Shown piece by piece: positions 16,233-58,908 of a stretch of DNA of 64,000 nucleotides. Under the pieces are notes generated by a model. The model worked only from the letters and a program-made list of their open reading frames with translations. It had not been told where the DNA came from and did not search any database. The first letter of the stretch is position 1. Every line of letters begins with the position of its first letter. Location: contig CAVUQO010000003.1 of NCBI GenBank assembly GCA_963743635.1, forward strand, positions 576,001 through 640,000. Direction: 5' to 3'. The DNA comes from Candidatus Babeliales bacterium. Lineage in GTDB: Bacteria > Babelota > Babeliae > Babelales > Vermiphilaceae. The position numbers and the translations under genes were made by a program.

Positions 16233-16261
16233 CTTTTAAAAATAGAAATAGGGATAATCAG

Positions 16262-17697
16262 ATGAAGTCTACACCAATTATATCCAATCTTCAAAATGGT
16301 ATTGATCATATACTCACAAAATTCCCTGTGATACGGGAAATTGTGCACGCGATTGACGTTCGGCATGGCCGTGCGCTGTTGGTAGGCGGTGCAGTGCGTG
16401 ATATTTTTTTGGAGCGTGAATGTAAAGATATTGATATCGAAGTGCATGGTATTGCGCTTGAAATATTGGAAGAAATTTTAAAAAAGCATGGACCGGTAAG
16501 CATGGTCGGTAAATCATTTGGCGTACTGCGATTGCATTCGCTTGATGTTGATTGGTCATTACCGCGTACTGATAGTGTTGGCAGAAAGCCGGTGGTAGCG
16601 ATCGATCCTAATATGTCTTTCAAGCAGGCATTTGAGCGTAGGGATTTAACCGTGAATGCGATGGGCATCGATATAAAAACGAAAGAATTAATCGATCCCT
16701 TTGGCGGACAATCGGATCTTGAGAAAAAGATATTGCGTGCACCAAATCCAGATACTTTCGTCGAAGATCCGCTTGCGCTTTTATCGCGTGATGCAAATGA
16801 TCGCCCGATTCACACTCTATCCGGATGATATGTTGCAAGCGCTTTGTAGGAGCATGTCCGTTGCTGATGTATCGCGCGAACGCATAGAGCTTGAATTTGA
16901 AAAAATGTTACTTCAATCTGAGTTTCCTTCTCGCGGCATTCGTTGGTTGAAAGAGATCGGCCGTTTGGCTGAAGTATTGCCCGAATTGGCAGCAACGGTT
17001 GGCGTTGAACAGGATCCGCGCTGGCATCCTGAAGGAGATGTGTTTGAGCATTCCATGCAGGCAGCTTGATGCAGCGGCGGCAATTGCGCGCACCTATGAT
17101 GATCGGCATAAGGCTCTCGTTCTTTTATATACGGCACTGTGTCATGATCTGGGCAAAGCTACTACTACTCAAAAAACGCCCAATGGCGTCACCAGTTATA
17201 ATCATGAAGTAGAAGGCGTAGAAATTGCGCGCAGTATGCTCAAACGCATTACTGAAAATCATGATATAACGGCAGCAGTGCTGAAATTGATACGCCATCA
17301 TATGACGCCCGTTGTATTTGTAAAGGAGGGTGCAAAGCCAGCCGCGTATAAACGGCTTGCAAATAAATTAGCCCCAGAAGGCACCATTGCATTACTGGCA
17401 GACCTTGCATACGCGGACATGCGCGGGCGCAATCCATTTGAGCAACGTCCTTTACCTCCTGGGATTTCCGAAATACCTCCTTTAAATACTGAGATTCCTG
17501 AACTTGTAATTTTCCTTGAACGCGCACAAGAAGCATGCGTGCGTGATAAGCAGGAAGAGCCAATTTTAAAAGGGCGCGACCTGCTTGATGTGATCTCTCC
17601 AGGTAAGAAAATGGGCGAATTGCTCGATCGTGCCTATGAGATACAGATTGAGGAAGGTATAACGGATAAAGATGTCCTTAAGAAACGCGTTTTGTAG
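16262..17697 (+). CDS. cca: tRNA nucleotidyltransferase with HD domain (two frameshifts)
   Basis: VGGAVRD, DIDIE, RRDLTVNA, EDP.R, WHPEGDVFEH and CHDLGK spread over three ORFs. Confidence 0.93.
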
Positions 17698-33900: not shown

Positions 33901-34152
33901 TTATTCATCATGTCCTAAATGTTCTATATATAAGGGAACATTAGGCATAATGCTATTTTTAAAACAAGCTATATGACACAAAAAAAATTGCTCGAACTGT
34001 CGATCTCTTGATTTATTATAATTGACCATAATATTTAAACTACATGGATCTGACTGAGATGAGTCAATTCCTTTCCCACAGAAACAACATTGCGTTTCAA
34101 ATTCATTTACGTTAATTCCATTGAATAAAAGGTGCTCATACGGATTCTTCAT
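33901..34152 (-). CDS. Small Cys-rich protein, putative immunity protein
   Basis: CCFCG...CHIAC; ATGA-coupled to the upstream gene in the toxin locus. Confidence 0.6.
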   Translation of the reverse strand: MKNPYEHLLFNGINVNEFETQCCFCGKGIDSSQSDPCSLNIMVNYNKSRDRQFEQFFLCHIACFKNSIMPNVPLYIEHLGHDE

Positions 34153-34550
34153 GATTTTGTTTCAAGGGAGTAAATGGCAATGTTCTCACACAACCCAAGG
34201 GTAATTTTTATGTACGTATCAAGATCGAGTTGTGGTTCACTGGCATCGATGCCTTGTTTTAAACAATATGGCTCAAGAGGGTAGATATGCACGAGATCAC
34301 GAGCGATTTCGATTTTTACGAAAGCCTGCGGGGTTTGCGCATAGATCGTGATAGGGAAATTAGTTTTTGCTATCTCTATTAATTGTTCTATTGATCTCTC
34401 CGTATGCGTTTCATGTTTATGAATGTCTTGAAAGTAAATATGTAGGTTGCGTTTTCCATTCCAGAAAAGTAAAGCAATATTCTCATTGGGGGTTGAAAAA
34501 TCTTGTATGAGTGGTGCTGTGTGTGCAGTTATATATGAAATTTTATTCAT
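34149..34550 (-). CDS. Putative immunity protein, paralog of 34571-34993
   Basis: C-terminus LDLDTYIKITLGLCENIAIYSLET resembles IDFARYIRLLLWLCKDFTILGLQT. Confidence 0.6.
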   Translation of the reverse strand: MNKISYITAHTAPLIQDFSTPNENIALLFWNGKRNLHIYFQDIHKHETHTERSIEQLIEIAKTNFPITIYAQTPQAFVKIEIARDLVHIYPLEPYCLKQGIDASEPQLDLDTYIKITLGLCENIAIYSLETKS

Positions 34551-34570
34551 GATTGACCTTTGATTTGTAT

Positions 34571-34993
34571 CTATTCAGTAGTGGTTTGTAATCCAAGGAT
34601 TGTGAAATCTTTGCATAACCATAAGAGAAGTCTTATATATCTCGCAAAGTCGATGGTGCCAGCTTCGATGTCTATTTCTTGTTTCCACGGGAATCCAAAA
34701 TAGAATATGCTAATCCTTATACATTTATCACTTGGATCGATACGCATTAAAAAATCAGTATTTTCAAATTTTACCAGAAGATACGCATCGCTTGTATCAC
34801 ATAGATTTGTATCCGTGAATTTTAAGATCAATGCAGTTGCTTCCTGGGAGCTAAATGCACAGGGATAATAGTCATCGATAGATTGATTGTAATAAATAAA
34901 GCCTAAATTTGAGCCATGTTGAATGATATGCGCAATATTCTTAGAATTGTGCGGGGCATCCAATATAGCTGAAATGGAATGAGATATACTCAT
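34571..34993 (-). CDS. Putative cognate immunity protein
   Basis: ATGA overlap with the toxin stop codon; GAAGG RBS. Confidence 0.65.
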   Translation of the reverse strand: MSISHSISAILDAPHNSKNIAHIIQHGSNLGFIYYNQSIDDYYPCAFSSQEATALILKFTDTNLCDTSDAYLLVKFENTDFLMRIDPSDKCIRISIFYFGFPWKQEIDIEAGTIDFARYIRLLLWLCKDFTILGLQTTTE

Positions 34994-37080
34994 ATTGTTC
35001 CTTCGTGAAATATGATATTTTTTTCTATGAACCACGTTTTCCAGTTTTCTGGTATCGGCCCTTTAGAGTATACCGCATAAGACTTTTTGAGGTGATCCGC
35101 AATTAATTTTTGTTGTTGCAATTTTGATCGGATGTCAGTCACATTAACTTGCTCCCAATTCCAATTCTTGCATTCTATCAATTTGCTTTGAGTGCTAATA
35201 TCAAAATCTCTAGAAGCTTTGCCATTACCTAAGTATTCACCAAATTTGCTAACTTTTTCTCCCTTTGCTTCTAGCTGTGCCGCAACTTCTAATTCGTACA
35301 AAGCTCCTCGAGCAGTGCCCAAGTTTCCGGAAGTTGCATTTTTTTGTCCAGTTTTTACGAGGATAGCAAGTGGATGTTTGGACGGGTCGGCGGCGTCAAT
35401 ACTTTTCAGAAGAGATTCGGCTTCTTTGATTTTAGTTAGATCGCCGAGAGCTGGATCGAGCTCATGCCACGCGATGGGTTCATGCATAGTTTTCAATGTA
35501 GTGGATACTTTGCGTGCGCCGGCAACACCAGCATTCTCTTGCGCTGAAAGCATAACCGTTTCTGCAGCTTCGCCTGCTACAAGAACCTCAAAACCTTCGG
35601 CCGAGGCGAGCAACTTGGGTGCGGTTGCAAGGCCTTGTTCAATTTTTTTGGTAAATTCAACGACTTTGGCTTGAGCTTTTGCGTAGAACTTGCCGGAAAC
35701 GTCTAAACATTTTGCGGTAAGATAGGCTTCGGTACCAAATGCGATTGTACCTCTGACTATCTCTGGGCCAGAGATGCTTTGATATTTTTCGTAAATTTCA
35801 CGGTAGATTGCTTTAATGGGTTTCTCGTAGGCATATATTTTGTCTTGCCCTGCAATTGGATCAAGCAGATACGTTCCTGTAATATCGCATACTTCATACA
35901 GTACTTTACCAAGATGATATATAACGGCTTCTGTGGCGTGTCCGATATTGAGGACAATATCTATTGGGTGTGATAATGTGCGGACGGTATTTACAACTCC
36001 GTCCCCTACACCTTGCACAACCGCCCAGCCGTAATCATTAAGCGCAGAAACAAGATTCGATATTGCCATTGCTTGTTTTACATGTCCGGCGTTGTTGTAT
36101 GCCATTCCAACGTGAGCGAATTCGACGGCCGATTCGGCAATATGGCGAACTCCGGAAATGTGGCCGTGTCGTTCATTGAGAAGGGATGCCCTATTCACGT
36201 TTGTTACGAATTCGTCGTGAATATGTTGCTGTAAGGCATTACCATGACATTGTTTGAAATTGTCGGCGTCCAGATCAAGAGCTTGTAGTAATGGGTTTGC
36301 AACGGAAAGAACGGTGTATTTTTGCGTTCTAGAAGCAAAATTTTCATCTATGGTCTTTTCTATTACATAGGCGCGGTTCATTATAGCTTTTTCGTTCGGC
36401 GATTGAGCTTTTTCAATTGACCGAGCTGTATCAACAATAGCAGTAAGATCTTTCTTTTGTGCTTGAATGGTAGCAGTGACTTGCTGTGCGATTGCTTCAC
36501 GTTGCTTTGCTATTGCGGCTTGTTGTACGCGGACTCGTTCCTGATGCCTCATTGCTAGAACTTGTTTTGATTGTTCAGCTTCTTTGGAAATAAAATCTTT
36601 GACGCTGGAGCGACGCGCTATAAAGACATTATCAAGGTTCTTAGCGAGTGTTTTATCTTGCATGATTTGGTTATTAAGCCCCACCATGGCTTCATGATAA
36701 CCTTCGAGTGTTGCTATGTACGCGCGAAAAGATGGGAATTGATAGAGGTTAAATTGGCAAAAAAGATCATTACGGTCTACTTGATGCAATAAATGTACGC
36801 TTTGACCGGCCATATTGCTGAAAAAGTTATCCCATTGGCTAGTGGTGAAGCTCGAATGTTTTTGTATGGTATGGGCACGGAGTGATGAAAAAACAGTACG
36901 AACGAAGGTGAAGACTTGAGGTGCGCAATATGTCTGAGTGGTCGTCACCGGTCTAACGCAGACGGAAACAAAAACTCCGTCATCAGAGCCTTTTTTATTG
37001 GAAGAAAATTCAACACCAGAAAATAGTGGACATGGGAGTAATGCTACGCTGAGGATGAATGTTTTGATTTGTGGACGCAT
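34990..37080 (-). CDS. Secreted polymorphic toxin with a C-terminal PD-(D/E)xK nuclease-like domain
   Basis: Signal peptide, helical stalk, pre-toxin-like GVGDGVVNTVRTLSHP segment, C-terminal YELEVA...DFDI...LIECK. Confidence 0.7.
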   Translation of the reverse strand: MRPQIKTFILSVALLPCPLFSGVEFSSNKKGSDDGVFVSVCVRPVTTTQTYCAPQVFTFVRTVFSSLRAHTIQKHSSFTTSQWDNFFSNMAGQSVHLLHQVDRNDLFCQFNLYQFPSFRAYIATLEGYHEAMVGLNNQIMQDKTLAKNLDNVFIARRSSVKDFISKEAEQSKQVLAMRHQERVRVQQAAIAKQREAIAQQVTATIQAQKKDLTAIVDTARSIEKAQSPNEKAIMNRAYVIEKTIDENFASRTQKYTVLSVANPLLQALDLDADNFKQCHGNALQQHIHDEFVTNVNRASLLNERHGHISGVRHIAESAVEFAHVGMAYNNAGHVKQAMAISNLVSALNDYGWAVVQGVGDGVVNTVRTLSHPIDIVLNIGHATEAVIYHLGKVLYEVCDITGTYLLDPIAGQDKIYAYEKPIKAIYREIYEKYQSISGPEIVRGTIAFGTEAYLTAKCLDVSGKFYAKAQAKVVEFTKKIEQGLATAPKLLASAEGFEVLVAGEAAETVMLSAQENAGVAGARKVSTTLKTMHEPIAWHELDPALGDLTKIKEAESLLKSIDAADPSKHPLAILVKTGQKNATSGNLGTARGALYELEVAAQLEAKGEKVSKFGEYLGNGKASRDFDISTQSKLIECKNWNWEQVNVTDIRSKLQQQKLIADHLKKSYAVYSKGPIPENWKTWFIEKNIIFHEGTI

Positions 37081-37139
37081 GGTATTGCTAAGCATGATGG
37101 CGGATCCTGCAAATGGTTATATGCTATGAGTATGCTGAC

Positions 37140-38381
37140 TTAAGTAGAGGTAATTTTACTGATTATATTCATGATAATCCAGATACCATTTATCCTATTC
37201 CACGTAAGATTTTCAGTATCTCTGTTTAGAGCTCGTTGTTTTTCTTGCTCTTCTTTGGTTGCAGTTCGCTGGAGTGCGACCTCTTTTTTTATTTTTTCCA
37301 ATTCTTTCATGAAATGTGTTTGGGCAATTGGTTCGCTATTACATACTGCATTTCTATGCGCATGTTTGCAAAGATTCGAAATATTCCGAACGCTAAAATT
37401 TTTTGTTTCTCTGATGAGTGTTTCGATGTCTTCTTTGGAGCAATATTCATCGAGTTTTTGTTGCGTATATTTTTCTGAAAAATGATCGAGCAGTTCTGTA
37501 CGGTGTTGGGCATCAGGATTTTTCATATGGATGCAAAGATCGACTCTGTTCCTGAGTTCCACCGGAACTCTATTGAGATGGTTGGTAGCAAAAATGAAAA
37601 ATACGCATGGATTATTTTTATTTTTATCAATGTGGCGCCACAGTGCTTTGTAGGCAGCATCATACTCAGTACGAGCAGTTGAATTTTCATTGCAGGAAAA
37701 GGCATCTATTTCATCGATAAAAATAATAACTCGTTTTTTGTATGCTTTTCCCTCTGCGATAGCATTTTCAATGCTTTCATTAATAATCGCTTTACTGCCG
37801 CCGATAAAGCCATCCAGAACATCTGCGCCGTAAATTTCCACAAAGTGGCTATCGGTGTTTTTCGCGATTGCTTGTGCAAGTGCCGTCTTGCCTACTCCGG
37901 TAGGACCTTCCAATAAAAGTACATTATCGATTTCTTTTTCATGACGAAAGATAAGTCCTAGGCTGATTTCCTTGTTATCTTCTTTGAGTTGCTCAATGAT
38001 TGGGCGTATTTCTGGTGGGCAGGCACCGATCATGCCCGGTATTTCGTAGCGAGGTTCATCTGAATCGTAATTGGGCGTATAGTCTATTTTTTTGAGTTGT
38101 TTTTGGTACCAATAGTATCCAGCACCCAACGCAACAATCCCCCCTGCAGCGAGATGAGAAAAATAGGGAGAGCCAGTTGCAGCGTTGATGTTAGTGGTAA
38201 TTGCTGCATAAGCGTTTGAAAATATATTGCTACTATTCGCGGATTGTGCATTTTGTAGAGTACTTGCTCCAGAAGCAAAAGGGAGTGGTATATGTGCTGA
38301 TGAGTATGCAAGATTTGAAAGGCTAAGAAATAGTATAAATGTTTTTAGGGTTCGAGTGTGAATGTGCATGATAATGTGCAT
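37140..38381 (-). CDS. Signal-peptide-bearing AAA+ ATPase with an internal TM segment
   Basis: GPTGVGKT, IFIDEID, FATN and LRNR; TM LAAGGIVALGAGYYW. Confidence 0.88.
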   Translation of the reverse strand: MHIIMHIHTRTLKTFILFLSLSNLAYSSAHIPLPFASGASTLQNAQSANSSNIFSNAYAAITTNINAATGSPYFSHLAAGGIVALGAGYYWYQKQLKKIDYTPNYDSDEPRYEIPGMIGACPPEIRPIIEQLKEDNKEISLGLIFRHEKEIDNVLLLEGPTGVGKTALAQAIAKNTDSHFVEIYGADVLDGFIGGSKAIINESIENAIAEGKAYKKRVIIFIDEIDAFSCNENSTARTEYDAAYKALWRHIDKNKNNPCVFFIFATNHLNRVPVELRNRVDLCIHMKNPDAQHRTELLDHFSEKYTQQKLDEYCSKEDIETLIRETKNFSVRNISNLCKHAHRNAVCNSEPIAQTHFMKELEKIKKEVALQRTATKEEQEKQRALNRDTENLTWNRINGIWIIMNIISKITST

Positions 38382-38455
38382 GATTTGGTACCTGAATGAA
38401 AGACACACTCTATTGAGCATGTCTTTCCAGTTTGTATAATATATTTCTTGGGAGA

Positions 38456-39592
38456 TTAAGAGTACTGGCGTAAAAGGCGCTCAGTGCTTTCTTCATTAAA
38501 CGCAGCTCTTTGTATGTTATATGAGGCTTGCTGTAATTTGAGTATTTCTTGCTGTATTGCGTCCTGTTCGTTCTCTCTTTTTAAGGTTCGTTGCTTTTCG
38601 AGTTCAGCTTCAGTTGGAGTATGTTGTAGCGCAACTTTTGCCTTCATTGCCTGTAAGGCGTACAGGAGATGATTTTCGGTAATTGGTGTGTTTTCACGTG
38701 CTGCATAATCACGACTGGAAAAACAGAGGTCTTCAATATCACGAATACTGAAATGTTCCGTTTGTTCTACTACCGTTTGTATGCACGTATCGGTACAGTA
38801 TTCTGCAAGTTTTTTCTGTGCGAGTTCCTTTGAAAAACAATCTAGTAATTCCCGGCGTTGTTGAGCATCAGGATTTTTCATCGAAACAATCTTACGGCCT
38901 ATTCTGTTTTTGAATGGAAGGGGTAAGCGATCCAAGCGATTGGTTGCAAAGATAAAAAGAACTTCTGGTTTGTACTGATTGTCATCTATATAGCACCACA
39001 AGGCTGCCATCGCAGCATCGTATTCAGTATGAGCGGCTGATGTTTCATTATTTGCAAGTTTGTCTATTTCATCAAATAAAATGACTACTCGCTTGTTAAG
39101 CGCTTTGCCTTCGGCCATTGCTTTGTCAATTTCTGCCATAAGGGCTTCTGTGGTTCCTCCAAGGTAGCGATTCAGAAGCTTAGGTGTGTTAATTTTAAAG
39201 AAATGGCTGTCTGATTCTTTGGCTATTGCTTCGGCAAGTCTTGTTTTGCCGATTCCAGTCGGTCCTTCGAACAGGAGCAGATTTTTATCTTCGCTTTTTT
39301 CAGAAGGTTTTGGTCCAAAACTAATTTTGTTAGCTTCTCGCATGAGACGTTTGATGGTGTCGCATGCGTCAGTTGGACATGTTCCGGCCATGCCGGACAC
39401 ATAACAAGGAGGAATTTTCGGAGTGTAAGGATTCTCAACTGGTGGTGTTGGAGCTGCTGGCGGTGTTACTGGAGCAGTAGGCGGAGGCGGTGATGGGTAA
39501 AGCCAATATGCTTGCACTGAAATGTGTGAAATGGCAACAAGTAGAATAAAAATTTTGCGCGCGTAAGAATATGTGCATCTGGTGTTATGCAT
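38456..39592 (-). CDS. Signal-peptide-bearing AAA+ ATPase with a Pro-rich N-terminus (paralog of 37140)
   Basis: GPTGIGKT, ILFDEID; shares TEYDAA..ALW..ID and MKNPDAQ.R with its neighbour. Confidence 0.88.
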   Translation of the reverse strand: MHNTRCTYSYARKIFILLVAISHISVQAYWLYPSPPPPTAPVTPPAAPTPPVENPYTPKIPPCYVSGMAGTCPTDACDTIKRLMREANKISFGPKPSEKSEDKNLLLFEGPTGIGKTRLAEAIAKESDSHFFKINTPKLLNRYLGGTTEALMAEIDKAMAEGKALNKRVVILFDEIDKLANNETSAAHTEYDAAMAALWCYIDDNQYKPEVLFIFATNRLDRLPLPFKNRIGRKIVSMKNPDAQQRRELLDCFSKELAQKKLAEYCTDTCIQTVVEQTEHFSIRDIEDLCFSSRDYAARENTPITENHLLYALQAMKAKVALQHTPTEAELEKQRTLKRENEQDAIQQEILKLQQASYNIQRAAFNEESTERLLRQYS

Positions 39593-39717: not shown

Positions 39718-42462
39718 TCACTGGAAGTTATATTCCTTGCAGCGGCGGTTGACGGAAGAGCGGTTGACGCCGAGAAATGCGGCGATTTGATTTTGGTTTT
39801 TGAATTTGTTCCAGAGTATCGTCATCGTCTTATGATCGCGCAGCGCATGTTTGCCCATGCGGGCTGCTTGGATGAGTGTTGGATCGCTCACCGTATATGC
39901 TGGATCAAATTGAGTTTCTTGGTAGATATGATTCTTTTTTGATTTATCGATGAGTAGTTGTTGAATACGTTTTTTCAATGCAGTTAAACTTACTGGACGT
40001 TGATGCGCAAGTTTGTTTTTTTCGCTCGGCGTGAGCTCAAAGAGCGTTTTGAAATCGTTGACCGTGAGTGCTTGCTGTGTAAAGCCATCAGCGAGTGCGT
40101 GCAGTTCGTCTTCAGGCAGTGTCAGCAAAGATGGCATGGAGAGAGTTGTTCTTTTTAATTCGTTAAACAGTGCTTTGGAGAAGATACCTTCTTGTACGAG
40201 CGCTTGTAAATTATGATTCGTCGAACAAATGACGCGCACATTACTCGCGGCGTGCGTATCACTTTTGAAGGTGCGATAGAATCCTGTTTTAAGAAACTCT
40301 GCCAAATATTCCTGCGTTTCAAGATTCATGAAATGCACATTTTCGATAAAGAGGGTGCCCGTAGTACTCAGTTTTTCAAGAAGCGGTTGCACACCATTTT
40401 CTATGCCGAGCATAGGATTTATACCGAATAATTTGATAGCAAGATCAAAATTGGTATTTGGGTAGTGCAATTTTATGACGTGCAGCTGTTCGCGCAGATT
40501 AATGTGATGCAATATTTCTACCGTTGCGAGAAGGTCATCTTCCGGCATATCGAGTAAAATTGCTTTTTTGGTGAGCGCAACTTGCAACAGTTCGATTTTA
40601 AAATTCAGGAGTATTTCACCAGATCCTGGAATGAGCTGATTGATGAGCCTTCCCGATTCGGTAGTTTCTAAATAGAGTAAATAATCCCACGTGGTAGGAT
40701 CTTGGAGTAAATCAATTTGTTTGGAAATAATATCGGATATATCGGGCCGGCAGATGGTGATGATAACATTATTATGCTCAAGATTGGGAACTGCGGAGAT
40801 GACGAGCTTGTTATCCGTTTGATCCTGCGTGAGTGCCGTTTGCGGCGCCTTATATTCCTCCACTTGGTGTGCGATGTGCCGTAGCGTTTTGGTGAGTGGG
40901 TGACCTTCTTGTTGGTTGAGGTTGATGTTGATCAAATCTTTAGCGATTTTGTTGCCGTAAATAAAACGGCGATTCTTATAAAACAGAATACCAATCTCTT
41001 TTTGCTTTGAATTACGCAGGAATGAACGCATGCTTTCTTTATATTGATTAATTTCTTGGTGTTTTGCATAGAGCTCTTCCTTGAGGAGCTTTTCTTGCTG
41101 AATGAGCCCATCAACACTGCGGTTTTGCAGTAGATTAATACTTTTTCCTAAGTAACTCGCAAAGACAAGCATTTCGTCGTGCTCAACATTGCCATAAAAT
41201 TCATGCTCACGCGCATGCCGTTCGACGATTATATAGGCGATAATTTTATTGTGTTCAAAGATGGGAATGAAGATATCCGCATTAATTGATTCAAGAAAGT
41301 TAAGGATGATCGTACGCGTCGGTTTTTGCTCGTAAAAATTACTGAAGGCTATTTCATCATGGATAAGTACTTTCATGCGGTTAATATAATCGCAGACCGC
41401 TTCATCATGCGTAGTCATGAACTGCTCTACAAACGCCTCGAGTTTTGAAGTTTCTCCGGATATTGTTGATTGCGCGACGTGGTTGAGGTTGCGAATCGAA
41501 AGTGCTGTTTTATTGCGAGGTATGTCAAAGGCGTTCTTGAAAAAATGCTGCGTCACTTGTCCGAGTTCATTGAGGGTTGTTGCCTGACTGAGCTGCTCAA
41601 GTACCTCTTTGAAATCATCGATGAAATCAAAATGGCGCGTTGACTGAACGTGATTTTTAAAATTAAGAAAGCGTAATCCTATTACATTTTTTATGCCGTA
41701 ATAAATGGCATACGTTATTAGGATTGTGGAAACGCTGACGATGGCATACAAATTTCCTTGCAGAAGGCCCCTAAAATTAAACTGACATGCTTGGAGTGTT
41801 TCGGTGATGGTATATGGTAATACCAGATATAAGGTGAAGATGCGGAGTTGTTTTTGCAGGATTTTGGGCACTTGTGATTTGCGTATGGTGCGTACTGCGG
41901 AAATAAGGATAGGCAGGGTGATGCATACCAGCAGATATATTGCGACGATGCGCATCATAAATGCTTCAAGGGGCAGGTTAGGATCAAGCATGGGAAGGCG
42001 AAAGGCTTCTCCACGCTCAGCTTTCGATATTCCGTTGGCAAAAAAAATGGCGAGCATCAAAAAATAGGCGCCGAATGCAGCACTGATGAGCGAGAATGTT
42101 TTATGAATTCTATTGAGCCGAAATGTTTTGGTTGAAAGACTCTCAATTAATAAGGCGAGTGATTGATATTGCAGTATGAGAAATGTCCATGATATTCGTA
42201 CGAAAAAGGTATATACCCCATATGGCATATCGGGAAAAGCGAGCTGACGCGCAAATTTTACGATCCATGCGAGATCACCAAACATTGAGCCGATGAGAGT
42301 GCAGAGCAAGAAGAGCCATGGTTTATTGAGCGGAGTGGTACGCAAACCTTGAGGTATAATTAATTTGAGCAAATAGGTTTTGACGGCAAAAGAAATTAAA
42401 GTTGCGGTCATGATGAATCCAGGACTCGCTAAGATACGATAGATTTCTTCGATGAATATCAT
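39718..42462 (-). CDS. Membrane-bound one-component regulator 1 (multi-TM, GAF-like, degenerate sigma54-activator AAA+, Fis-type HTH)
   Basis: About 7 N-terminal TMs; GAF-like ADIFIPI...IIAYIIV; GTLFIENVHFM...NVRVICSTN...LFNEL; C-terminal [20 protein letters not shown]. Confidence 0.85.
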   Translation of the reverse strand: MIFIEEIYRILASPGFIMTATLISFAVKTYLLKLIIPQGLRTTPLNKPWLFLLCTLIGSMFGDLAWIVKFARQLAFPDMPYGVYTFFVRISWTFLILQYQSLALLIESLSTKTFRLNRIHKTFSLISAAFGAYFLMLAIFFANGISKAERGEAFRLPMLDPNLPLEAFMMRIVAIYLLVCITLPILISAVRTIRKSQVPKILQKQLRIFTLYLVLPYTITETLQACQFNFRGLLQGNLYAIVSVSTILITYAIYYGIKNVIGLRFLNFKNHVQSTRHFDFIDDFKEVLEQLSQATTLNELGQVTQHFFKNAFDIPRNKTALSIRNLNHVAQSTISGETSKLEAFVEQFMTTHDEAVCDYINRMKVLIHDEIAFSNFYEQKPTRTIILNFLESINADIFIPIFEHNKIIAYIIVERHAREHEFYGNVEHDEMLVFASYLGKSINLLQNRSVDGLIQQEKLLKEELYAKHQEINQYKESMRSFLRNSKQKEIGILFYKNRRFIYGNKIAKDLININLNQQEGHPLTKTLRHIAHQVEEYKAPQTALTQDQTDNKLVISAVPNLEHNNVIITICRPDISDIISKQIDLLQDPTTWDYLLYLETTESGRLINQLIPGSGEILLNFKIELLQVALTKKAILLDMPEDDLLATVEILHHINLREQLHVIKLHYPNTNFDLAIKLFGINPMLGIENGVQPLLEKLSTTGTLFIENVHFMNLETQEYLAEFLKTGFYRTFKSDTHAASNVRVICSTNHNLQALVQEGIFSKALFNELKRTTLSMPSLLTLPEDELHALADGFTQQALTVNDFKTLFELTPSEKNKLAHQRPVSLTALKKRIQQLLIDKSKKNHIYQETQFDPAYTVSDPTLIQAARMGKHALRDHKTMTILWNKFKNQNQIAAFLGVNRSSVNRRCKEYNFQ

Positions 42463-42467
42463 TTTTA

Positions 42468-42496
42468 TTGATCTTGTGTTATGGTCCCGTTATACT
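42468..42496 (+). promoter_or_regulatory. sigma70-type promoter for peptide gene 1
   Basis: TTGATC (42468-73), 17-bp spacer, TATACT (42491-96); same position relative to the regulator ATG as at 47441. Confidence 0.7.
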
Positions 42497-42639
42497 ACTA
42501 CGCAAATTGTATAGAAGTATTAACACTAAAAACGCAATATGTTAAGCATTAACTATTTTTGGGTATTACTTTCTAGTGTTGGAAAAATTGTATTGGTGAT
42601 GTATTCAATGTTTTGGTTATAACCTTAGGGGATATTATT

Positions 42640-42762
42640 ATGATAAATCGTAAAAAATTATTGAGACTTGGATATGTGATTGTGTTCTTTAATGTGGGAT
42701 GTGCATTCGCAGCATGGCCGCCACCACCAGATGATGCTCCTCAGATGAATATCCAAAAGTAA
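42640..42762 (+). CDS. 40-aa secreted peptide precursor MINRKKLLRLGYVIVFFNVGCAFAAWPPPPDDAPQMNIQK
   Basis: AGGGG RBS, basic n-region, hydrophobic h-region, AFA cleavage motif, terminator 19 bp downstream. Confidence 0.78.
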   Translation: MINRKKLLRLGYVIVFFNVGCAFAAWPPPPDDAPQMNIQK

Positions 42763-42780
42763 CAAAACATAAAAAATAAA

Positions 42781-42820
42781 AAAACTGCACTGTAGATTTG
42801 AGTCTACGGTGCAGTTTTTT
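42781..42820. terminator. Bidirectional terminator, homologous to 44619-44662
   Basis: AAAACTGCACTGTAGA...TCTACGGTGCAGTTTT. Confidence 0.88.
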
Positions 42821-42829
42821 AATAGCTTT

Positions 42830-42874
42830 ACCCATTCGATACCTCGCTTCGCTTGGTCCTCAGGGCGAACGGGG
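42830..42874 (+). repeat. Repeat family B copy
   Basis: ACCCATTCGA...CCTCAGGGCGAACGGG. Confidence 0.8.
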
Positions 42875-42915
42875 AATAAATATCTTTTTTGCGCTGTTTC
42901 TTAGATGAGTCCACC

Positions 42916-44262
42916 TCAACTCACCACCACCGGCACCAAGGCACTTTCTCCACCGAGCGAGCTCACGGCACTCACAAAGAGGTTGTTGCCACTATCGCCA
43001 GCGGGTACGAATGCATTAAACGTGAGTGGTGATGTTGCAAGCACGTTCCCCACCAGCGTGGTGCCGTTATAAATATTGTATGACGTTACGTCAGGCGTTA
43101 CGCTCGCAGTCCAGGTGATGGTCAGCATGCGCGCCGTTTGCAACAGGAATACATTATTTTTGCGCACGCCAACAACATTCGTTGGTGCGGCAACTCCCGC
43201 CGAGGGGATCACTTGGCCAGTTACCGCTAGTGCATACGCACCTCCACTGACTGCGATCGGCGTTCCTGCTAATGGTGAGCCCACCGTAATTGGCGTAACG
43301 GTATTATTACTATTATTACCAGTTGCGACGTATACCGTTCTACCATCAAGAGAAATTGCAATATTTTCTAAATTCTTAGATATATTAGACACCCCCATAA
43401 TGGTACTGGTTACACTCGGCGTCAGCAAGGTAAGATCAATAACACTCACCGTTCCATCACCCAGATTGGTTACATACGCATAATGATTATCAGGGGTTAT
43501 GGCAATGCCATAAGGAGAAGTACCAACCGAAATAGGATAGCCCGCAGGCGCAGGCGAAAGATCAAACGGTTGTACTTCATTTTTGCCAGCGAAAACGACA
43601 TACGCAGTATCAGTAGCCGTATCAATCGCAACACCAAATGGAAATGAAGTATCAGGATTGGATTGATAGTATGTCTGATTCAATGTTAAAAGATCAACTT
43701 TGTAAAATCCGTATGCATACTGGCTCAGGGATATTTGAATAAGAAGCGTTATATAGGCAACATGATTACTAATGACCAAGCCGCCAATCTCCTCTTCTTG
43801 CCCCACCAATGGATTAGTAAGAACAGTAACAGATCCCAGAATAGGCGCTGATGGATCTGCGATATTCACTGGCACAAGAATTGCTGCATTTCCCAGATCT
43901 AATCCTGCTATATATGCGGTTGTTCCATCAATGGCTATAGCTTCGGGGATAAGGGGAATACCACTTAAATCCGTAGTACTCACAATGTTATTGGTGGCAA
44001 TATCAATTGCTAGTAACGTGTTATGATTATTATCAATCATGTATGCGGTTTTATTATCCGTTGATATCGCGACCCCGACAAGATTCGCACTATTGGGCAC
44101 TGCGAACGGCGAGCCGGCAATGGGAGCGCCCGTTGCTTGATCAATTACCGAGAATGATGAACTTGTGCCATTGGCCACATACACAAACGGTGCGGCATCG
44201 ACTGCTTGCCAAGAAATGAGTAGTGATATGCTGAGTACAATAAGAGATTTTTGTACGTTCAT
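42916..44262 (-). CDS. Secreted YVTN/YncE-type beta-propeller with an FN3-like C-terminus
   Basis: Signal peptide, FVYVAN, PYGIAITPDNHYAYVTN..DGTVSVID and ITWTAS...SYNIY. Confidence 0.85.
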   Translation of the reverse strand: MNVQKSLIVLSISLLISWQAVDAAPFVYVANGTSSSFSVIDQATGAPIAGSPFAVPNSANLVGVAISTDNKTAYMIDNNHNTLLAIDIATNNIVSTTDLSGIPLIPEAIAIDGTTAYIAGLDLGNAAILVPVNIADPSAPILGSVTVLTNPLVGQEEEIGGLVISNHVAYITLLIQISLSQYAYGFYKVDLLTLNQTYYQSNPDTSFPFGVAIDTATDTAYVVFAGKNEVQPFDLSPAPAGYPISVGTSPYGIAITPDNHYAYVTNLGDGTVSVIDLTLLTPSVTSTIMGVSNISKNLENIAISLDGRTVYVATGNNSNNTVTPITVGSPLAGTPIAVSGGAYALAVTGQVIPSAGVAAPTNVVGVRKNNVFLLQTARMLTITWTASVTPDVTSYNIYNGTTLVGNVLATSPLTFNAFVPAGDSGNNLFVSAVSSLGGESALVPVVVS

Positions 44263-44394
44263 TTTTTTCCTTTTTTTGTTAGGGGTTATCTTCAAAATAT
44301 ATTTACCATTAAACGTACTGAGAATATACAATATTCGTTCCTCGTGCCGGATTCAATTATTACTAACCATTGCTTAGATGCGATCGCCCTCATT

Positions 44395-44551
44395 CCCCGT
44401 TAGCCCTAGTCCTGAGCTTATCGAAGGGTCGAATCGGTACAGAGTAAGATGATTTACACTATCTAAACCATGCAACGTTTATGTATCCCCGTACCCATTC
44501 GAGACATTTTTCATTTCGCTTTGCTTATGAAAAACCCTCAGGGCGAACGGG
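44395..44551. repeat. Repeat family B inverted pair
   Basis: 44493-44551 is nearly identical to 24201-24257; a degenerate inverted copy lies at 44395-44438. Confidence 0.85.
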
Positions 44552-44618
44552 TTAAAGTAACTTTTTATTATTTTAAATTATAATTGCTGCAGCGCTTGTT
44601 TAACAAATTACGATGTTC

Positions 44619-44662
44619 AAAGAAAATGCACCGTAGATTCAATACCTACGGTGCATTTTCTT
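44619..44662 (-). terminator. Terminator of regulator 2
   Basis: AAGAAAATGCACCGTAG...CTACGGTGCATTTTCTT. Confidence 0.85.
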
Positions 44663-44715
44663 TATAGCTTTAGCGTACCAGAAATACAAGCTATATATTA
44701 TTTGTATGGCCTCGA

Positions 44716-47435
44716 TTATTCCAAATTATATTCTTTGCAGCGGCGATTCACCGATGAGCGATTAACGCCCAGGAATGTTGCAATCTTACTTTGATTTTCA
44801 AATTTGCGCCAGAGCATGGTGAATATTTTGCGATCTTTGAGCGCCTGTTTGCCAAGGCGCGAAGCTTCAATAAGATCAGGATCGGAAACTTCATACGCAG
44901 GATCAAATTCAGTTTCATTATAAATATTGTTCTTCTTGGATTTTGCAACGAGTAAGTGCTGTACCTTATTTTTCAGTTCATGCAAACTGGTCGGACGGCT
45001 ATGGATGAGTTTAATTTTTCACGATCGGTGAATTCAAGGAAATTCTTCAAATCGTCCGTTTTGATTGCTTGTTCGGTCAATCCATCAGCCAAGCTGGGCA
45101 ATTCATTTTCAGGCAAGGTAACGAGCGATGGCATTGCTAGAGAGGTGCGAGATAACTCATTAAAGAGGGTCGCAGAGAACTTTTGTTCACGCACGAGCGT
45201 TTGTAAATCTTGATTGGTTGAGCAGATAATGCGTACCGTAGTTGGAATGCGTTGCTCGCTTTTCACGCGGCGATAGAAGCCATACCGAATCAATTCAGCC
45301 AAATATTCTTGGCTTTCAGAATCAAGGAAATGAATGTTCTGAATAAAGAGGGTAGCCATTATCGGCGAGTGTTCCAAGATAGGTTTTTGTTCTTGCGGAT
45401 GGCCAAAAAGAGTGGATTGATGCCAAAGAGTTTGATCGCAATTTCGCATCGTAGTGCAAGGGCCGCTCAATTTGAGCATGTGCAAGCGTATCGCGCAGAC
45501 TGATATGGTGAATGATTTCAACGGTTGGCATCAAGATCTTCATCATTCATTTCAAGCAAAATAGCTTTTTTACTGAGCGCGGTTTTTAGAAGTTCGATTT
45601 TAAAGTTTAAAAGCGTTTCACCAGTCCCAGGAATAAGCTGATTAATAAGTTGTCCTGATTTGGTAGTCTCAAGATAGAGCAAATAATCCCATTGCGTTGG
45701 ATCTTTTAAATGATCGATCTGTTTTTTCAAAATGTCTGAAATTTCAGGATGGTATACGGTGATGATGATATTATTTTGTTCGAGATTGGGTACGCCTGAA
45801 AATACGATCTTATTGCCCGCTACGTCATAGGTAATACAACTTTGGGGCGATTTATACTCTTCAACCTGGCGCGCAATATGGCGGGCAGCTTTGGTCAGTG
45901 CATGGCCTTCTTGGGTATTGATGTTAATTTTAATGAGATCTTTTGCGGCCTTATTGCCAAAAATGAACCGGCGATTTTTATAAAAGAGAATACCGATCTC
46001 TTTTTGTGGTGAATTGCGCAGGAATGAACGAATACTTTCTTTATACTGATTCACTTCTTGATGCTTGCGATACAGCTCTTCTTTGAGCTCTTTTTCGTGA
46101 TGCATGAGTGATTCAAGGTTGCGATGCTGCATAAGGTTGATGATGTTCGCCAGATAGCTGCCAAATACAAGCATTTCGTCGCGCTCAACGTTACTATAAA
46201 ACTGTTCAGGCCGCGCGCCACGATCGACGACTAAGTAACCAACCAAACGTTGTTTTTGATAAATAGGAAGGAAGATATCAGCATTAATTGTTTCAAGAAA
46301 TTGCAGCATCAGGTTACTGATATCGCTTTTTTCATAGAAGTTACTAAAAGCAATCTCATCATGAATGAGAATTCCTTCATTTTTAAGTACTGTTTCAAAG
46401 CGTTGACTATGGGTGCTCGATAAAGTTTTCCACCAATGTTGCAGTAGTATTCACGTAAAACGGATGCCCTTCATTCATTTCAGATTTTTCAATATGCCGT
46501 ACGAATAGCATCGTTTTATTGAGGGGCACATTAAACGCCTCTTTAAAATAGGTCTGTGTAATATGGCGCAAGCTTTGTTCATTCGTCGCATGACTCAATG
46601 ATTCAAGCACCTGCTTAAAGCCGTCGACAAAATGAAACTGACGCGGAATTTCTACATGCCGCTTTAAATTCAAGAACCTGAGGGACATCATACGCCGCGA
46701 ACAGTAATAGATGGCATAGGTCAGAATGATGGTTGATATACTAACCGCTGCATAACTATTGGTAATCCAGGTAGGATGAAAAACGAGCGGATATACTTGA
46801 ATTAGATCGGTGATCCAAAAAGGGATAATAAATACTTGGGTAATAATGCGTGCTTGTGTTGAAAGAATGCGTGGTGAATTATTAGAACGCAGTTTGCGAA
46901 ATACCAGAAAAAGACTGAAGGGAATAAGAAAAATAGAGAGAAAAAATGATTGATATTTACGCACTTCAAATTCTATTGGTGGCCGTGCGGCTGAATTGAG
47001 ACAATTAATATCGTAAAAAGCAAGACCAACTACAAACATGAAGAAACAACTACTCAATAAAATAGAGAGTTTTTGGCGAATGTTAAATTCGTTTTTTTGT
47101 TCAGTTAAATTCTCTATAAAGATCGATAGGGATTGATAGAGAATTCCTGTAAAAGCCCATGCTAAACGAATGATGAACAGCTTTGCGGAATATGGTATTG
47201 CAGGAAATATGAGCTGCCGTGTCAATTCAATTATCCACGCAAAATCACTGATTGCAGCGCTGCCTAGGATAATTAACAATAAGTACCATGGCTTTTTATT
47301 AGTAGGCGAAATATTTTTTTGTAGCACCAGCGTGGCAAAGATGCCAATTTTTAATAAAAATGAGCATGAGGTAATAGCCAGTAATAAATACTGATTACCG
47401 ATGGTGCATTCGAGAAAATCGAGAAAATGTGTCAT
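44716..47435 (-). CDS. Membrane-bound one-component regulator 2, paralog of 39718-42462 (several frameshifts)
   Basis: The ORF pieces align in order with regulator 1 ([51 protein letters not shown]); could also be a true pseudogene. Confidence 0.85.
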
Positions 47436-47440
47436 CTTTA

Positions 47441-47469
47441 TTGATCTTATAAAAGGTTGTCGTTATAAT
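47441..47469 (+). promoter_or_regulatory. sigma70-type promoter for peptide gene 2
   Basis: TTGATC (47441-46), 17-bp spacer, TATAAT (47464-69). Confidence 0.75.
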
Positions 47470-47523
47470 ATAGTTCATACTGTAAATTAATTTAGTTTTA
47501 AAACCCCCACACAGGAGAACTGT

Positions 47524-47628
47524 ATGTCTAAGTTAATCACATTGATTAGCAAGATAAGCAGAGCACATGTTGCTTTAGTTTTATCGGTTGTTGCCTATTT
47601 GCTAGGTGATTATCCACCAGGCGATTAA
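47524..47628 (+). CDS. 34-aa peptide precursor MSKLITLISKISRAHVALVLSVVAYLLGDYPPGD
   Basis: AGGAG RBS 6 nt upstream, hydrophobic core, DYPPGD tail; syntenic with peptide 1. Confidence 0.75.
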   Translation: MSKLITLISKISRAHVALVLSVVAYLLGDYPPGD

Positions 47629-47710: not shown

Positions 47711-48388
47711 GTGAAACAGTCGATAGCTCAAAAGCGTCAGAAAGCTGTTGCCATTGTAACAATGTTACGAAAAGCGACGGCGAATATGGAAAAACCGGCT
47801 GTTTCACATGTGGTCCAGGCCTATGGACGCGATCCATACCTCATCCTTATCAGCTGTTTGCTGAGTCTTCGGGCCAAAGATACGGTATCCCTACCGATAG
47901 CCCTCAAGCTGTTCAAGTTGGCAAAAACGCCCCAAGAAATCGTTAAAATCCCCCGTCACGAGCTTGAAAAGCTATTTTTCTCCATTGGCTATTATCGCCA
48001 AAAGGCCAAAGCGGTCCATGAAGTGAGTCAAGAACTCATTGAGCGATTCGATGGCAAAGTTCCCAAAACACAAAAAGAATTACTCTCTCTGAAGGGAGTC
48101 GGCATCAAAACGGCCAATCTTGTTTTGGGTGAGGCATTTGGTATTCCTGCCATTTGCGTGGATATCCATGTCCATCGCATCTCAAATCGCCTCGGGTTAG
48201 TGGAAACTAAGACTGCCGAGGAAACCGAGGTAGCGCTCCAAGAGATCCTACCCAAAGAATATTGGATTGAATTTAATTATCTTTTGGTGACCTGGGGGCA
48301 GAATATCTGCGTTCCCGTTTCCCCGTTTTGCTCACGCTGCGTGCTGAGCGATATTTGTCCGAAAAAGGGCGTCATCCGGCGGCGTTAA
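47711..48388 (+). CDS. nth: Endonuclease III
   Basis: HhH motif LKGVGIKTA, VDIHVHRISNR and C-x6-C-x2-C-x5-C. Confidence 0.96.
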   Translation: MKQSIAQKRQKAVAIVTMLRKATANMEKPAVSHVVQAYGRDPYLILISCLLSLRAKDTVSLPIALKLFKLAKTPQEIVKIPRHELEKLFFSIGYYRQKAKAVHEVSQELIERFDGKVPKTQKELLSLKGVGIKTANLVLGEAFGIPAICVDIHVHRISNRLGLVETKTAEETEVALQEILPKEYWIEFNYLLVTWGQNICVPVSPFCSRCVLSDICPKKGVIRRR

Positions 48389-57613: not shown

Positions 57614-58202
57614 TTAAAATTCTCTGATTTCTTTGGCTTTTTTCTCACCTTTATCATCTGCTTGTTTGCAGTAACGGCCAGTTACGTCTTCGAGAATGTC
57701 AGAAAGGCGACTAAAGAAGTTTTCAGAAATCTCTTTATCTTTTTTCGCATCGCGAATGAGATTATTAAAATCTTTGCGAACATTACGCATCGCGATTTTG
57801 CATTCTTCAACTTTTTTATTCAAAATTTTGACTAAATCTTCGCGGCGAGCAGTGCTCATTTCAGGCAATGTTAAGCGAATAATTTGACCATCATTTGCCG
57901 GGCTCAAGTCCAAGATCTGAATTGCTAATTGCTTTTTCGATTTCTCCAATAACGCCAGCATCCCATGGTTGAATGGTCAAAAGGCGTGCATCAGGAGCTG
58001 CGCATGCCGCTATGTTTTTAAGGGGCAGTGGTGCGCCGCCGTAAACAGATACGGGAAGATTTTCGATGAGCGATGGGTGTGCGCGGCCAGTGCGGACTTT
58101 GATGAGTTCCGCTTCAAGATGTTTAATGGATTTCGCCATTTCATCTTCCATTGCTTTTTGGAACGTTTTCGTATCGTTTTCGACAAGAGTTATTTGAATC
58201 AT
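57614..58202 (-). CDS. frr: Ribosome recycling factor (frameshift near 57900)
   Basis: VRTGRAHP, IQPWD and P..DG..IRL.LP...RR..L. Confidence 0.95.
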
Positions 58203-58908
58203 AGAGTATCCTTTGTTTCAATTATGCTACCAATATCTGGTGATTGTGCCACTTCGAGTAATGCATTGTTTTTAAAGAGTGTAAAAACTCGAATAGGTAT
58301 TTTATATTCTTTTGCGAGTGCAAGTGCCGTTATATCCATGATGCCGAGCTTGCGATCGACTGCATTCTTGATGCGTGATCCGTTTGATGATCGTGGCATT
58401 CGTATGAGTATGCGGATCTGCCGTATAAATGCCATCAATATTGGTGGCTTTCCATACTTCATGGGCCTGTATTTGCAGCGCGCGCATAATCGCATTGGTG
58501 TCGGTGGTGAAAAATGGATTGCCCGTACCGCCCGCAAAAATGAGTATCTCATCGGCATTAAAGCCATCATCAATTGCGGATTGATTAATCGGTTGGGCTA
58601 CGGCATCACATGCAAGTGCGGTAAGAAGCCGCGCACGTATTCCCGCTTGGACCATAAGATCCTTGAGGATTACGCCATTCATGAGGGTTGCAAGCATGCC
58701 TACGGTGTGACCCGCAGTAGGCCGCAATCCAAACGCATTGCCTTGCTGATGACCACGAAAGAAATTGCCGCCGCCAATAACAATACCGAACTGATGTGTT
58801 TCGCGTAAGCTATTCAGATTATCGAGCACATCGCTTAATGACTTGTGCATGTTGTGGATCGAGTAACGTACCCGTTAACTTGAGCAGAATCCTTTTTTTG
58901 CCGTTCAT
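58199..58908 (-). CDS. pyrH: Uridylate kinase (two frameshifts)
   Basis: RILLKLTG start, GGGNFFRG, GTGNPFFTTD and IMDITA. Confidence 0.95.

Follow-up and report, generated by a model that had tools for sequence, protein, structure and literature searches.

The bacterial peptide signals known to date are read either by histidine kinases or by cytoplasmic proteins of the RRNPP group. For the Ca. Babelota (Dependentiae/TM6), which are strictly intracellular and parasitize protists (PMC12172432), the genome paper of the diderm C. destructans reports quorum-sensing mechanisms to be absent (PMC6561590), and structure searches have found prokaryotic seven-transmembrane-helix (7TM) domains resembling G-protein-coupled receptors (GPCRs) in kinases and cyclases (PMC13581589). 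Here we analyzed a window of 64,000 nt (positions 576,001 to 640,000 of contig CAVUQO010000003.1, assembly GCA_963743635.1) from a Candidatus Babeliales bacterium, the source genome being a 1.45 Mb assembly that is 85% complete, together with 261 genomes of the phylum. The window holds two paralogous membrane receptor-regulators, A and B, each lying head-to-head with a small open reading frame (ORF) for a peptide with a Pro-Pro motif. From sequence comparison we conclude that this receptor-peptide pair is real and lies outside every known family tested, and we propose a mechanism for it; no description of such a pair was found in the literature, subscription papers and the supplements of genome papers lying outside the scope of the search. 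The reading that we consider probable, albeit with some reserve, is that of the original prediction made from this DNA alone: a kinase-free one-component receptor-regulator that would sense its own exported peptide, with predicted binding, export and regulatory output.

Peptide gene A (42640..42762, + strand) encodes 40 aa behind the ribosome-binding site (RBS) AGGGG at 42627-42631, with a basic N-terminus, a hydrophobic core, a WPPPP core and a DDAP tail. An A-F-A signal-peptidase-like site can be read by eye in this peptide, and relatives with F/Y-PP and a similar DAP/TAP tail are found at loci L159, L161 and L163. Peptide gene B (47524..47628, + strand) encodes 34 aa behind the RBS AGGAG at 47513-47517, with a hydrophobic body and the family-typical end D-Y-P-P-G-D. 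The place of both ORFs, the head-to-head layout, the RBS, the hydrophobic body and the Pro-Pro were thus confirmed, but the Asp in the tail, which had been taken as part of the pattern, is not general. Neither window peptide has a family in Pfam or NCBIfam, and searching the source genome with a peptide profile added no others, while peptide A itself was missed.

We investigated how regularly the pair occurs in a main set of 98 receptor loci (best-scoring matches), of which 96 are full-length, 94 remain without near-duplicates and 86 have at least 450 nt of upstream sequence. Under a strict rule the ORF had to be divergent, 15-70 aa long and preceded by an RBS, and its last 16 residues had to include Pro-Pro. 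We observed such an ORF at 73 of the 86 non-redundant receptors, compared with 2/86 on the same strand as the receptor, 1/72 downstream of it, 0.58/86 in shuffled sequences and 18/844 at genes of the source genome, two of the latter being true cases; the pairing that had been foreseen is conserved throughout the order. On the reverse strand downstream of the receptor 9/72 pass the strict rule, and these are probably the peptides of tandem copies. Duplicated receptors usually each retain their own peptide. The strict rule is also passed at 14/29 loci of distant families (one of them a duplicate of the main set) and at 15/27 metagenome loci, and most of the misses in these two sets are longer signal-peptide ORFs with a Pro-rich tail. 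A relaxed rule, drawn up post hoc from inspection of the strict-rule misses, finds a peptide at 80/86 and 23/28 loci, where shuffled sequences give 1.4 and 0.35 and the source genome gives 30/844. The 73 peptides have a median length of 29 aa and a median start 88 nt from the receptor; 66 of them are hydrophobic, and in 40 the Pro-Pro stands two residues before the end. At some loci (L048, L065, L090, L109 and L126) two tandem peptide genes, identical or slightly diverged, lie upstream of a single receptor.

The small ORFs evolve as proteins. In 12 close pairs the synonymous difference pS was 0.62 and the non-synonymous difference pN 0.35, length changes are multiples of three, and all four Pro codons are in use at the Pro-Pro with third positions free, which is the coding-type conservation expected of genuine peptide genes. 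When the receptor loci were scanned without bias for ORFs of 25-140 aa in which an xPPx 4-mer is repeated, seven came up. Every one is a divergent peptide gene, with 2-5 Pro-Pro cores behind a signal sequence. Since these seven precursors carry repeated cores, the sequences point to a released short peptide that would act by concentration.

Each small gene is preceded by a conserved sigma-70-type promoter: TTGATC-N17-TATACT for peptide A (42468..42496, + strand), which abuts the start codon of receptor A, and the conserved pattern TTGATC-N17-TATAAT for peptide B (47441..47469, + strand). The pattern TTG-N17-TATACT was found at 64/86 and 20/28 loci, compared with 5.7 and 2.2 in shuffles, at a median of 6.5 nt from the receptor start. 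In the window (42462-42500 and 47435-47475) the -35 box of the peptide lies 5-7 nt from the receptor start codon, so that any promoter of the receptor itself has to overlap with it. Read on either strand, the -10 region often gives a -10 box (ATTATA in 55/114 loci, a count without control), and the receptor gene has no obvious RBS. Position frequencies at the peptide promoter show the -35 and -10 boxes only, and among palindromic dyads in the intergenic DNA of the source genome nothing could be assigned as an operator.

Receptor A (39718..42462, - strand; long-ECL2 class, named after the second extracellular loop) is an intact ORF of 914 aa, and the AlphaFold model made for it from an alignment of 89 sequences is confident (mean pLDDT 86). 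Of the two paralogues of about 910 aa that had been announced, A is therefore as described, whereas B is not a single ORF in this assembly (see below). The model of A shows the expected parts, namely seven transmembrane helices (aa 14-265; 41668..42423, - strand), a GAF-like domain (aa ~280-446; 41125..41625, - strand), a long coiled-coil helix (aa 450-484), an AAA+ domain with the fold of bacterial enhancer-binding proteins (bEBPs; aa ~600-845; 39928..40665, - strand) and a C-terminal helix-turn-helix (HTH; 39733..39882, - strand), and in addition a PAS-like domain (aa ~490-571; with the coiled coil at 40750..41115, - strand) that had been overlooked. The GAF-like and PAS-like labels follow from the order and topology of secondary structure and from Atlas features (for the GAF-like domain, hits to GAF/HisKA_7TM clusters), with no separate fold match. 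The HTH, with GVNRSSVxRR, is the best-conserved block of the receptor family. Between A and the intact form of B the identity is 34% in the 7TM part, compared with 49% in the GAF, 72% in the coiled coil/PAS, 60% in the AAA and 70% in the HTH, in line with the diverged sensors and more similar cytoplasmic halves that had been described. As to the absence of a kinase, Pfam and NCBIfam scans of receptor A found no kinase domain, and there is no REC domain; Pfam scan and AlphaFold model show no TPR domain, and no kinase or response regulator was found in the 85%-complete source genome.

By its predicted structure the sensor has a GPCR-like seven-helix fold, although a shared fold shows neither function nor ancestry. 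VIA warns that helical bundles can score Z 13-14 by chance. The sensor of A matches GPCRs at Z 14.8-16.7 over residues 5-270, and 49 of the 50 best VIA matches of the B sensor are GPCRs or GPCR-like (Z 15.5-17.3, 3-11% identity, rmsd 3.6-5.2 A over 214-248 residues; Foldseek E 4e-4). The latter sensor, 256 aa long and unbroken in the window (46668..47435, - strand), was folded alone with pLDDT 93 and pTM 0.90. Basic residues in the odd loops give an N-out/C-in topology by the positive-inside rule. The conserved residues D63, W66, R89, W92, E166, E/D221 and Y239 all lie in the outer half of the modelled bundle, as expected for a ligand pocket. No Pfam family fits the sensor; 0/89 sensors match HisKA_7TM (PF16927) at E<=0.05, and in Atlas language-model features similarity reaches 0.92-0.94 to clusters in which 10-29% of the members carry PF16927. 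When 1.84 billion representatives were searched with a profile of the sensor, 396 proteins matched, 365 with E<=1e-10, which makes it a closed family. None of 23 matches shows the sensor in another architecture, and the best 150 of the 396 have lengths that fit the same family.

The original prediction described the output half as a sigma-54-activator-like AAA+ domain, and the fold with its C-terminal HTH bears this out: Pfam PF00158 matches in part, and Foldseek and VIA match the domain to NtrX, PspF, DmpR and VpsR (Z 18-21, 17-22% identity), NtrX being best in Foldseek. The motifs for the activity implied by that description are not retained, however. In the 89 sequences Walker A is replaced by LLxMPExD, GAFTGA by LFGINP, Walker B by TLFI[QKE]N (N in 86/89) and the arginine-finger region by LFNELKK, so by its motifs the domain is catalytically dead and is a scaffold, not a sigma-54 motor. 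RpoN (PF04552) was above the cut-off in 0/261 genomes, with 2 weak matches below it, and was detected in 4 control genomes. The database label 'sigma 54-interacting transcriptional regulator' for the receptor family is misleading.

Receptor homologues are present in 185/261 genomes of the phylum and in 79/79 of the window's family. Because the receptors sit at a core locus, with mrdA/xerC-like genes on one side and nth/thrS-like genes on the other, the comparison of loci indicates that the receptor locus belongs to the core genome and is inherited vertically. Among 68 loci the conserved neighbours, under the names that we presume for them, are thrS-like (20), mrdA-like (32), xerC-like (29) and nth-like (37), and none of these conserved neighbours is an AgrB/C39-type processing or export gene. 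The families without a receptor (f18 0/35, f19 0/12, f16 0/2, f13 0/1) carry a REC domain in the form of an NtrX-like regulator (32/35, 11/12, 2/2 and 1/1 genomes). In the window's family only 3/79 genomes have REC domains, and the families with the receptor are mostly devoid of receiver domains, so that the NtrX-like regulator and the receptor are distributed over the families in a nearly complementary way. In families f4, f6 and f15 no receptor match was found, and REC occurs in 0/3, 0/7 and 1/6 genomes. The NtrX-like regulator has the same kind of altered Walker B as the receptor and aligns with its C-terminal half (probability 98%, 19% identity), and the source genome has the locus of this regulator without the regulator itself. 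These observations suggest that the output half of the receptor may have come from an orphan NtrX-like regulator; as the pattern follows the families, it amounts to few independent events. We also considered that the receptor might be a collapsed two-component system; this was dropped, as the NtrX-like regulator follows mlaE/mlaF-like genes in a tpi-secG-mlaEF-(moxR) region and at all 20 fetched loci (L139-L158, families f13/f16/f18/f19) has neither a kinase gene nor a 7TM gene near it.

Next, we analyzed whether peptide and sensor change together, using 73 receptor-peptide pairs and permutations that ignore phylogeny. The similarity of the peptides around the Pro-Pro correlated with 7TM identity (rho 0.28, and 0.30 when controlling for the cytoplasmic half) and not with the identity of the cytoplasmic half (0.04), and in a sliding window the correlation drops near residue 260. 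The predicted covariation with the transmembrane domain is thus seen, subject to the linkage of the two genes discussed below. Peptides of long-ECL2 sensors, the class of A, have R/K at -2 in 13/19 and an aromatic residue at -1 in 17/19 cases, compared with 2/54 and 12/54 for the short-ECL2 sensors, the class of B. A charge swap between sensor and peptide was examined as a possible contact; its best column (the E149 region in ECL2) was equalled by cytoplasmic columns and was not accepted. A co-fold of the B 7TM with the peptide B precursor, both given as alignments, scored 0.11 against a mark of 0.32, with the controls not folded, and so counts neither for nor against binding.

The two window pairs had been proposed to be two pherotypes. 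Many tandem loci in the window's family repeat the same order, with a short-ECL2 copy on the nth side and a long-ECL2 second copy, and because of this the sequences indicate that A and B are old paralogous parallel channels standing side by side in many genomes of the family, not allelic or strain pherotypes. A pherotype-like change is nevertheless seen between close relatives: B orthologues at 83-84% identity have peptides that end in VLPPGD and DGPPGN, and the peptide cores of L043 and L044 have diverged at 80% receptor identity. The sensor of A is nearest to W-PP receptors and its cytoplasmic half is nearest to short-ECL2 receptors (72%), with the peptide following the sensor; as the two halves have different nearest relatives, this points to receptor A being a product of module shuffling.

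On the reading that we prefer, the peptide-sensing system is a core trait of most Babeliales families. The small gene would be transcribed from its conserved sigma-70-type promoter, and the peptide would be exported by Sec, with either signal peptidase I or a protease within the membrane presumably making the cut. A short x-P-P-x-x peptide, in several copies from some precursors, would then be released to the periplasm and the host compartment and bind the outward pocket of its own GPCR-fold sensor. From there the signal would run via the GAF-like domain, the coiled coil and the PAS-like linker to the ATPase-dead AAA+ scaffold and the HTH, which is predicted to bind DNA and to switch sigma-70 genes on or off. 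The likely read-out would be confinement or kin density, for example when a free particle becomes a replicating body or when growth gives way to division and exit. In C. destructans an inactive free particle turns into a replicating body (PMC6561590), and by analogy with this life cycle one might guess that the pair governs the passage between free particle, replication body and lysis. The source genome has two signal peptidases and one M50 protease, while AgrB (PF04647), C39 peptidase (PF03412) and receiver domains were not found in this 85%-complete assembly. In the peptides of short-ECL2 sensors a small residue stands where a signal peptidase cut leaves a 6-7-mer in 28/43 cases.

Several observations weigh against this proposal. 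Only 3/19 long-ECL2 peptides have a small residue at the expected cleavage position, and for these peptides an intramembrane protease may do the cutting, or they may remain tethered; some peptides have no hydrophobic core at all. Action between cells of a diderm would require the peptide to cross the outer membrane. Even by the relaxed rule 6/86 receptors have no peptide, 4 of the 6 being diverged second copies (L038:5800, L040:5762, L073:4274 and L080:5275), for which orphan or eavesdropping receptors are possible. The covariation is modest and its permutations take no account of phylogeny, the hydrophobic body of the peptide tracks the 7TM as well (partial 0.23), and for R/K at -2 the 7TM tree is only slightly more parsimonious (7 versus 9 changes). 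Linkage alone may produce the same covariation, because the receptor gene adjoins the peptide gene at its 5' end and recombination carries both. Finally, neither an operator nor an autoregulation motif turned up.

The poor signal-peptidase sites of the long-ECL2 class are what one would expect if the small protein were an inner-membrane helix whose Pro-Pro tail sets or damps the 7TM sensor of the same cell, the true stimulus being another one, for instance pH, a molecule from the host or proteolytic cleavage of the tether. MgrB and SafA, small modulators of histidine kinases, offer an analogy. The small size of the proteins (median 29 aa) and a hydrophobic helix that stops 2-4 residues before the Pro-Pro fit such a modulator, which would explain the pairing and the sensor-linked covariation equally well and needs no passage of the outer membrane. 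We nevertheless regard this explanation, the main rival, as rather unlikely. The seven precursors with 2-5 repeated cores behind a signal sequence argue against it, as do the distant families, where a classical signal peptide is followed by a long variable spacer before the Pro motif, and the fast divergence of the cores in close relatives such as L043 and L044, which is typical of self/non-self signals.

The linkage of the two genes also admits an exported peptide that is aimed at the host or at co-infecting bacteria, or that is an envelope component, with a receptor that only controls the gene. Divergent pairs of a regulator and its target gene are common, the physical linkage of peptide and receptor is real, and covariation would then come from linkage. 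Many Babelota proteins are secreted (a signal peptide is reported on 44% of the coding sequences of C. destructans; PMC6561590), but the shared region holds no operator-like motif, the class of the peptide follows the loop length of the sensor across old paralogues, and the peptide of receptor A follows the sensor, so that we consider this explanation improbable. Still less probable is a ribosome-arrest leader of the RAPP type, like ApdA and ApdP, in which a signal sequence and a stall at the C-terminal Pro-Pro would control a downstream gene in cis or monitor secretion. Similarity to RAPP-like motifs (PMC10951233, PMC7897499, PMC10987492) is seen in ends of the forms R-[W/F/Y]-P-P and x-P-G, and a same-strand gene lies downstream of 43/54 short-ECL2 peptides. 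However, this explanation suffers from the fact that the most RAPP-like class, the long-ECL2 peptides, faces a convergent gene in 18/19 cases and a terminator-like hairpin in 9/19. Elsewhere the downstream gene is mostly nth-like and not one for protein localization, the distance from signal to motif would be too short for force release, and the repeated cores and the strict link to the receptor are left unexplained. That the small ORFs are untranslated by-products of a conserved promoter region is scarcely credible in view of their RBS, hydrophobicity, protein-level Pro-Pro, pN below pS and in-frame length changes.

Receptor B (44716..47435, - strand; short-ECL2 class) is spread over four ORFs (47435-46407, 46309-45518, 45521-44973 and 44985-44716, all on the - strand) that are separated by three frameshifts. 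An intact 904-aa protein of B exists (P0153), with 100% identity across the 7TM part, and the short-read contigs of two studies have indels where B is broken, 8/10 among the indels listed being common to both. Because of these indels and of the intact protein, the frameshifts are probably assembly errors, although one of the runs, X1, may be the source sample and thus not independent; a true pseudogene of B in the window strain is the less likely alternative. Relative to the window, the same contigs carry 88 substitutions across the B half, where the first 18 of those listed share one codon phase, compared with 0 across the A-half pieces that are listed for run X1. As the contigs carry these 88 substitutions, comparison with them indicates that the window holds another B allele. 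The 3' part of B (44716-45532, - strand) differs from the contigs at many codon positions of the same phase, with an identical sensor protein, which may be a sign of between-strain recombination in the cytoplasmic half. Frequent indels are also seen elsewhere in the window, where housekeeping genes are split or truncated at 256-2079, 13441-15181, 16169-17697 and 58199-58850; we take these to be Lon-, DsbD-, CCA-enzyme- and PyrH-like.

Between the two cassettes lies a gene for a beta-propeller protein with a signal-like N-terminus (42916..44331, - strand), which is not a conserved neighbour and has dispersed repeats at its flanks. These are copies of a REP-like repeat, at about 42857-42876 and 44477-44552; one 15-nt core occurs 24x in the source genome, and many unrelated contigs match the repeat. 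A terminator-like hairpin with flanking A and T tracts follows peptide A (42779..42820, + strand, -26.6 kcal/mol), and a similar strong hairpin after receptor B (about 44625-44662) completes a bracket around the beta-propeller gene; the two may be one two-way terminator that was duplicated when the gene inserted. On the other side of the peptide B gene lies what we take to be an endonuclease III-like gene (nth; 47711..48388, + strand), the conserved syntenic neighbour at 37/68 loci. Just downstream of receptor A (37140-39592, - strand) two tandem AAA ATPase genes with signal-like N-termini were found, which are not conserved neighbours and could possibly be secreted proteins or targets. They are followed at 34990-37095 (- strand) by a gene for a 701-aa protein with a signal-like start and no Pfam match, and by two small genes at 34149-35035; by eye, one might guess at a restriction-endonuclease-fold toxin domain in the C-terminus of the protein and at an immunity-like role of the small genes.

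If the proposal is true, a GPCR-like surface receptor would read peptides without phosphorylation or peptide uptake, and a candidate ligand would be available for the prokaryotic 7TM sensors found by structure search (PMC13581589). Present in ~70% of the phylum's genomes at a core locus, and in families that mostly have no response regulators, the receptor is a candidate for the switch between particle and replicating body, and the pairing suggests that these parasites have an undescribed means of sensing each other or the compartment of the host. More than 100 natural sensor-peptide pairs would be a source of orthogonal single-gene peptide sensors. A more far-reaching version, which we put forward tentatively and with less confidence than the proposal itself, would make the pair the third kind of peptide signalling in bacteria: a receptor with a GPCR fold, connected directly to DNA and activated by multi-copy, hormone-like Pro-Pro peptides, as the main signalling switch of an obligate intracellular order that has otherwise lost two-component systems, timing free particle, replication body and host lysis through kin sensing in a protist.

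Compared with described systems, the sensor comes closest in its language-model features to HisKA_7TM clusters. The GPCR-like sensors of prokaryotic kinases and cyclases likewise have a seven-helix N-out bundle followed by a GAF domain, and for them the excerpt of PMC13581589 does not mention a self-encoded peptide ligand. In contrast to these, the receptor has a transcription-factor output, and its sensors do not match PF16927. The output half resembles the atypical, sigma-54-independent bEBPs Brucella NtrX, Vibrio VpsR and TyrR in that a bEBP AAA+ domain without GAFTGA is joined to a C-terminal HTH; here, however, Walker A is lost too, the input is 7TM-GAF-PAS and not a receiver, and the protein is anchored in the membrane. 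ToxR and CadC also combine sensor, membrane anchor and DNA-binding domain in one chain, but cross the membrane once, with the winged helix at the N-terminus and the sensor in the periplasm, whereas the receptor crosses it with seven helices, has its HTH at the C-terminus and comes with a peptide gene of its own. With the RRNPP systems (Rap-Phr, PlcR-PapR, NprR-NprX and Rgg-SHP), whose peptides are exported and cut to a short C-terminal peptide, it shares the one-component design and a tiny adjacent pro-peptide gene with a hydrophobic leader, the export being a prediction here, and with Rgg-SHP the divergent pair as well. Unlike these cytoplasmic HTH-TPR proteins, the receptor is integral to the membrane, has an outward pocket and no TPR, and by its predicted topology needs no re-import of the peptide. 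As in Agr, Com and ComQXPA, a small precursor gene is linked to a polytopic membrane receptor that would sense at the surface, and sensor and peptide form one contiguous variable stretch that diverges jointly, next to a conserved output half. Where those systems rely on a kinase, a response regulator and AgrB or a C39 transporter, none of which was found here, the Babelota pair has a GPCR-like 7TM fused to a DNA-binding output and divergent genes, in a diderm and obligate intracellular host.

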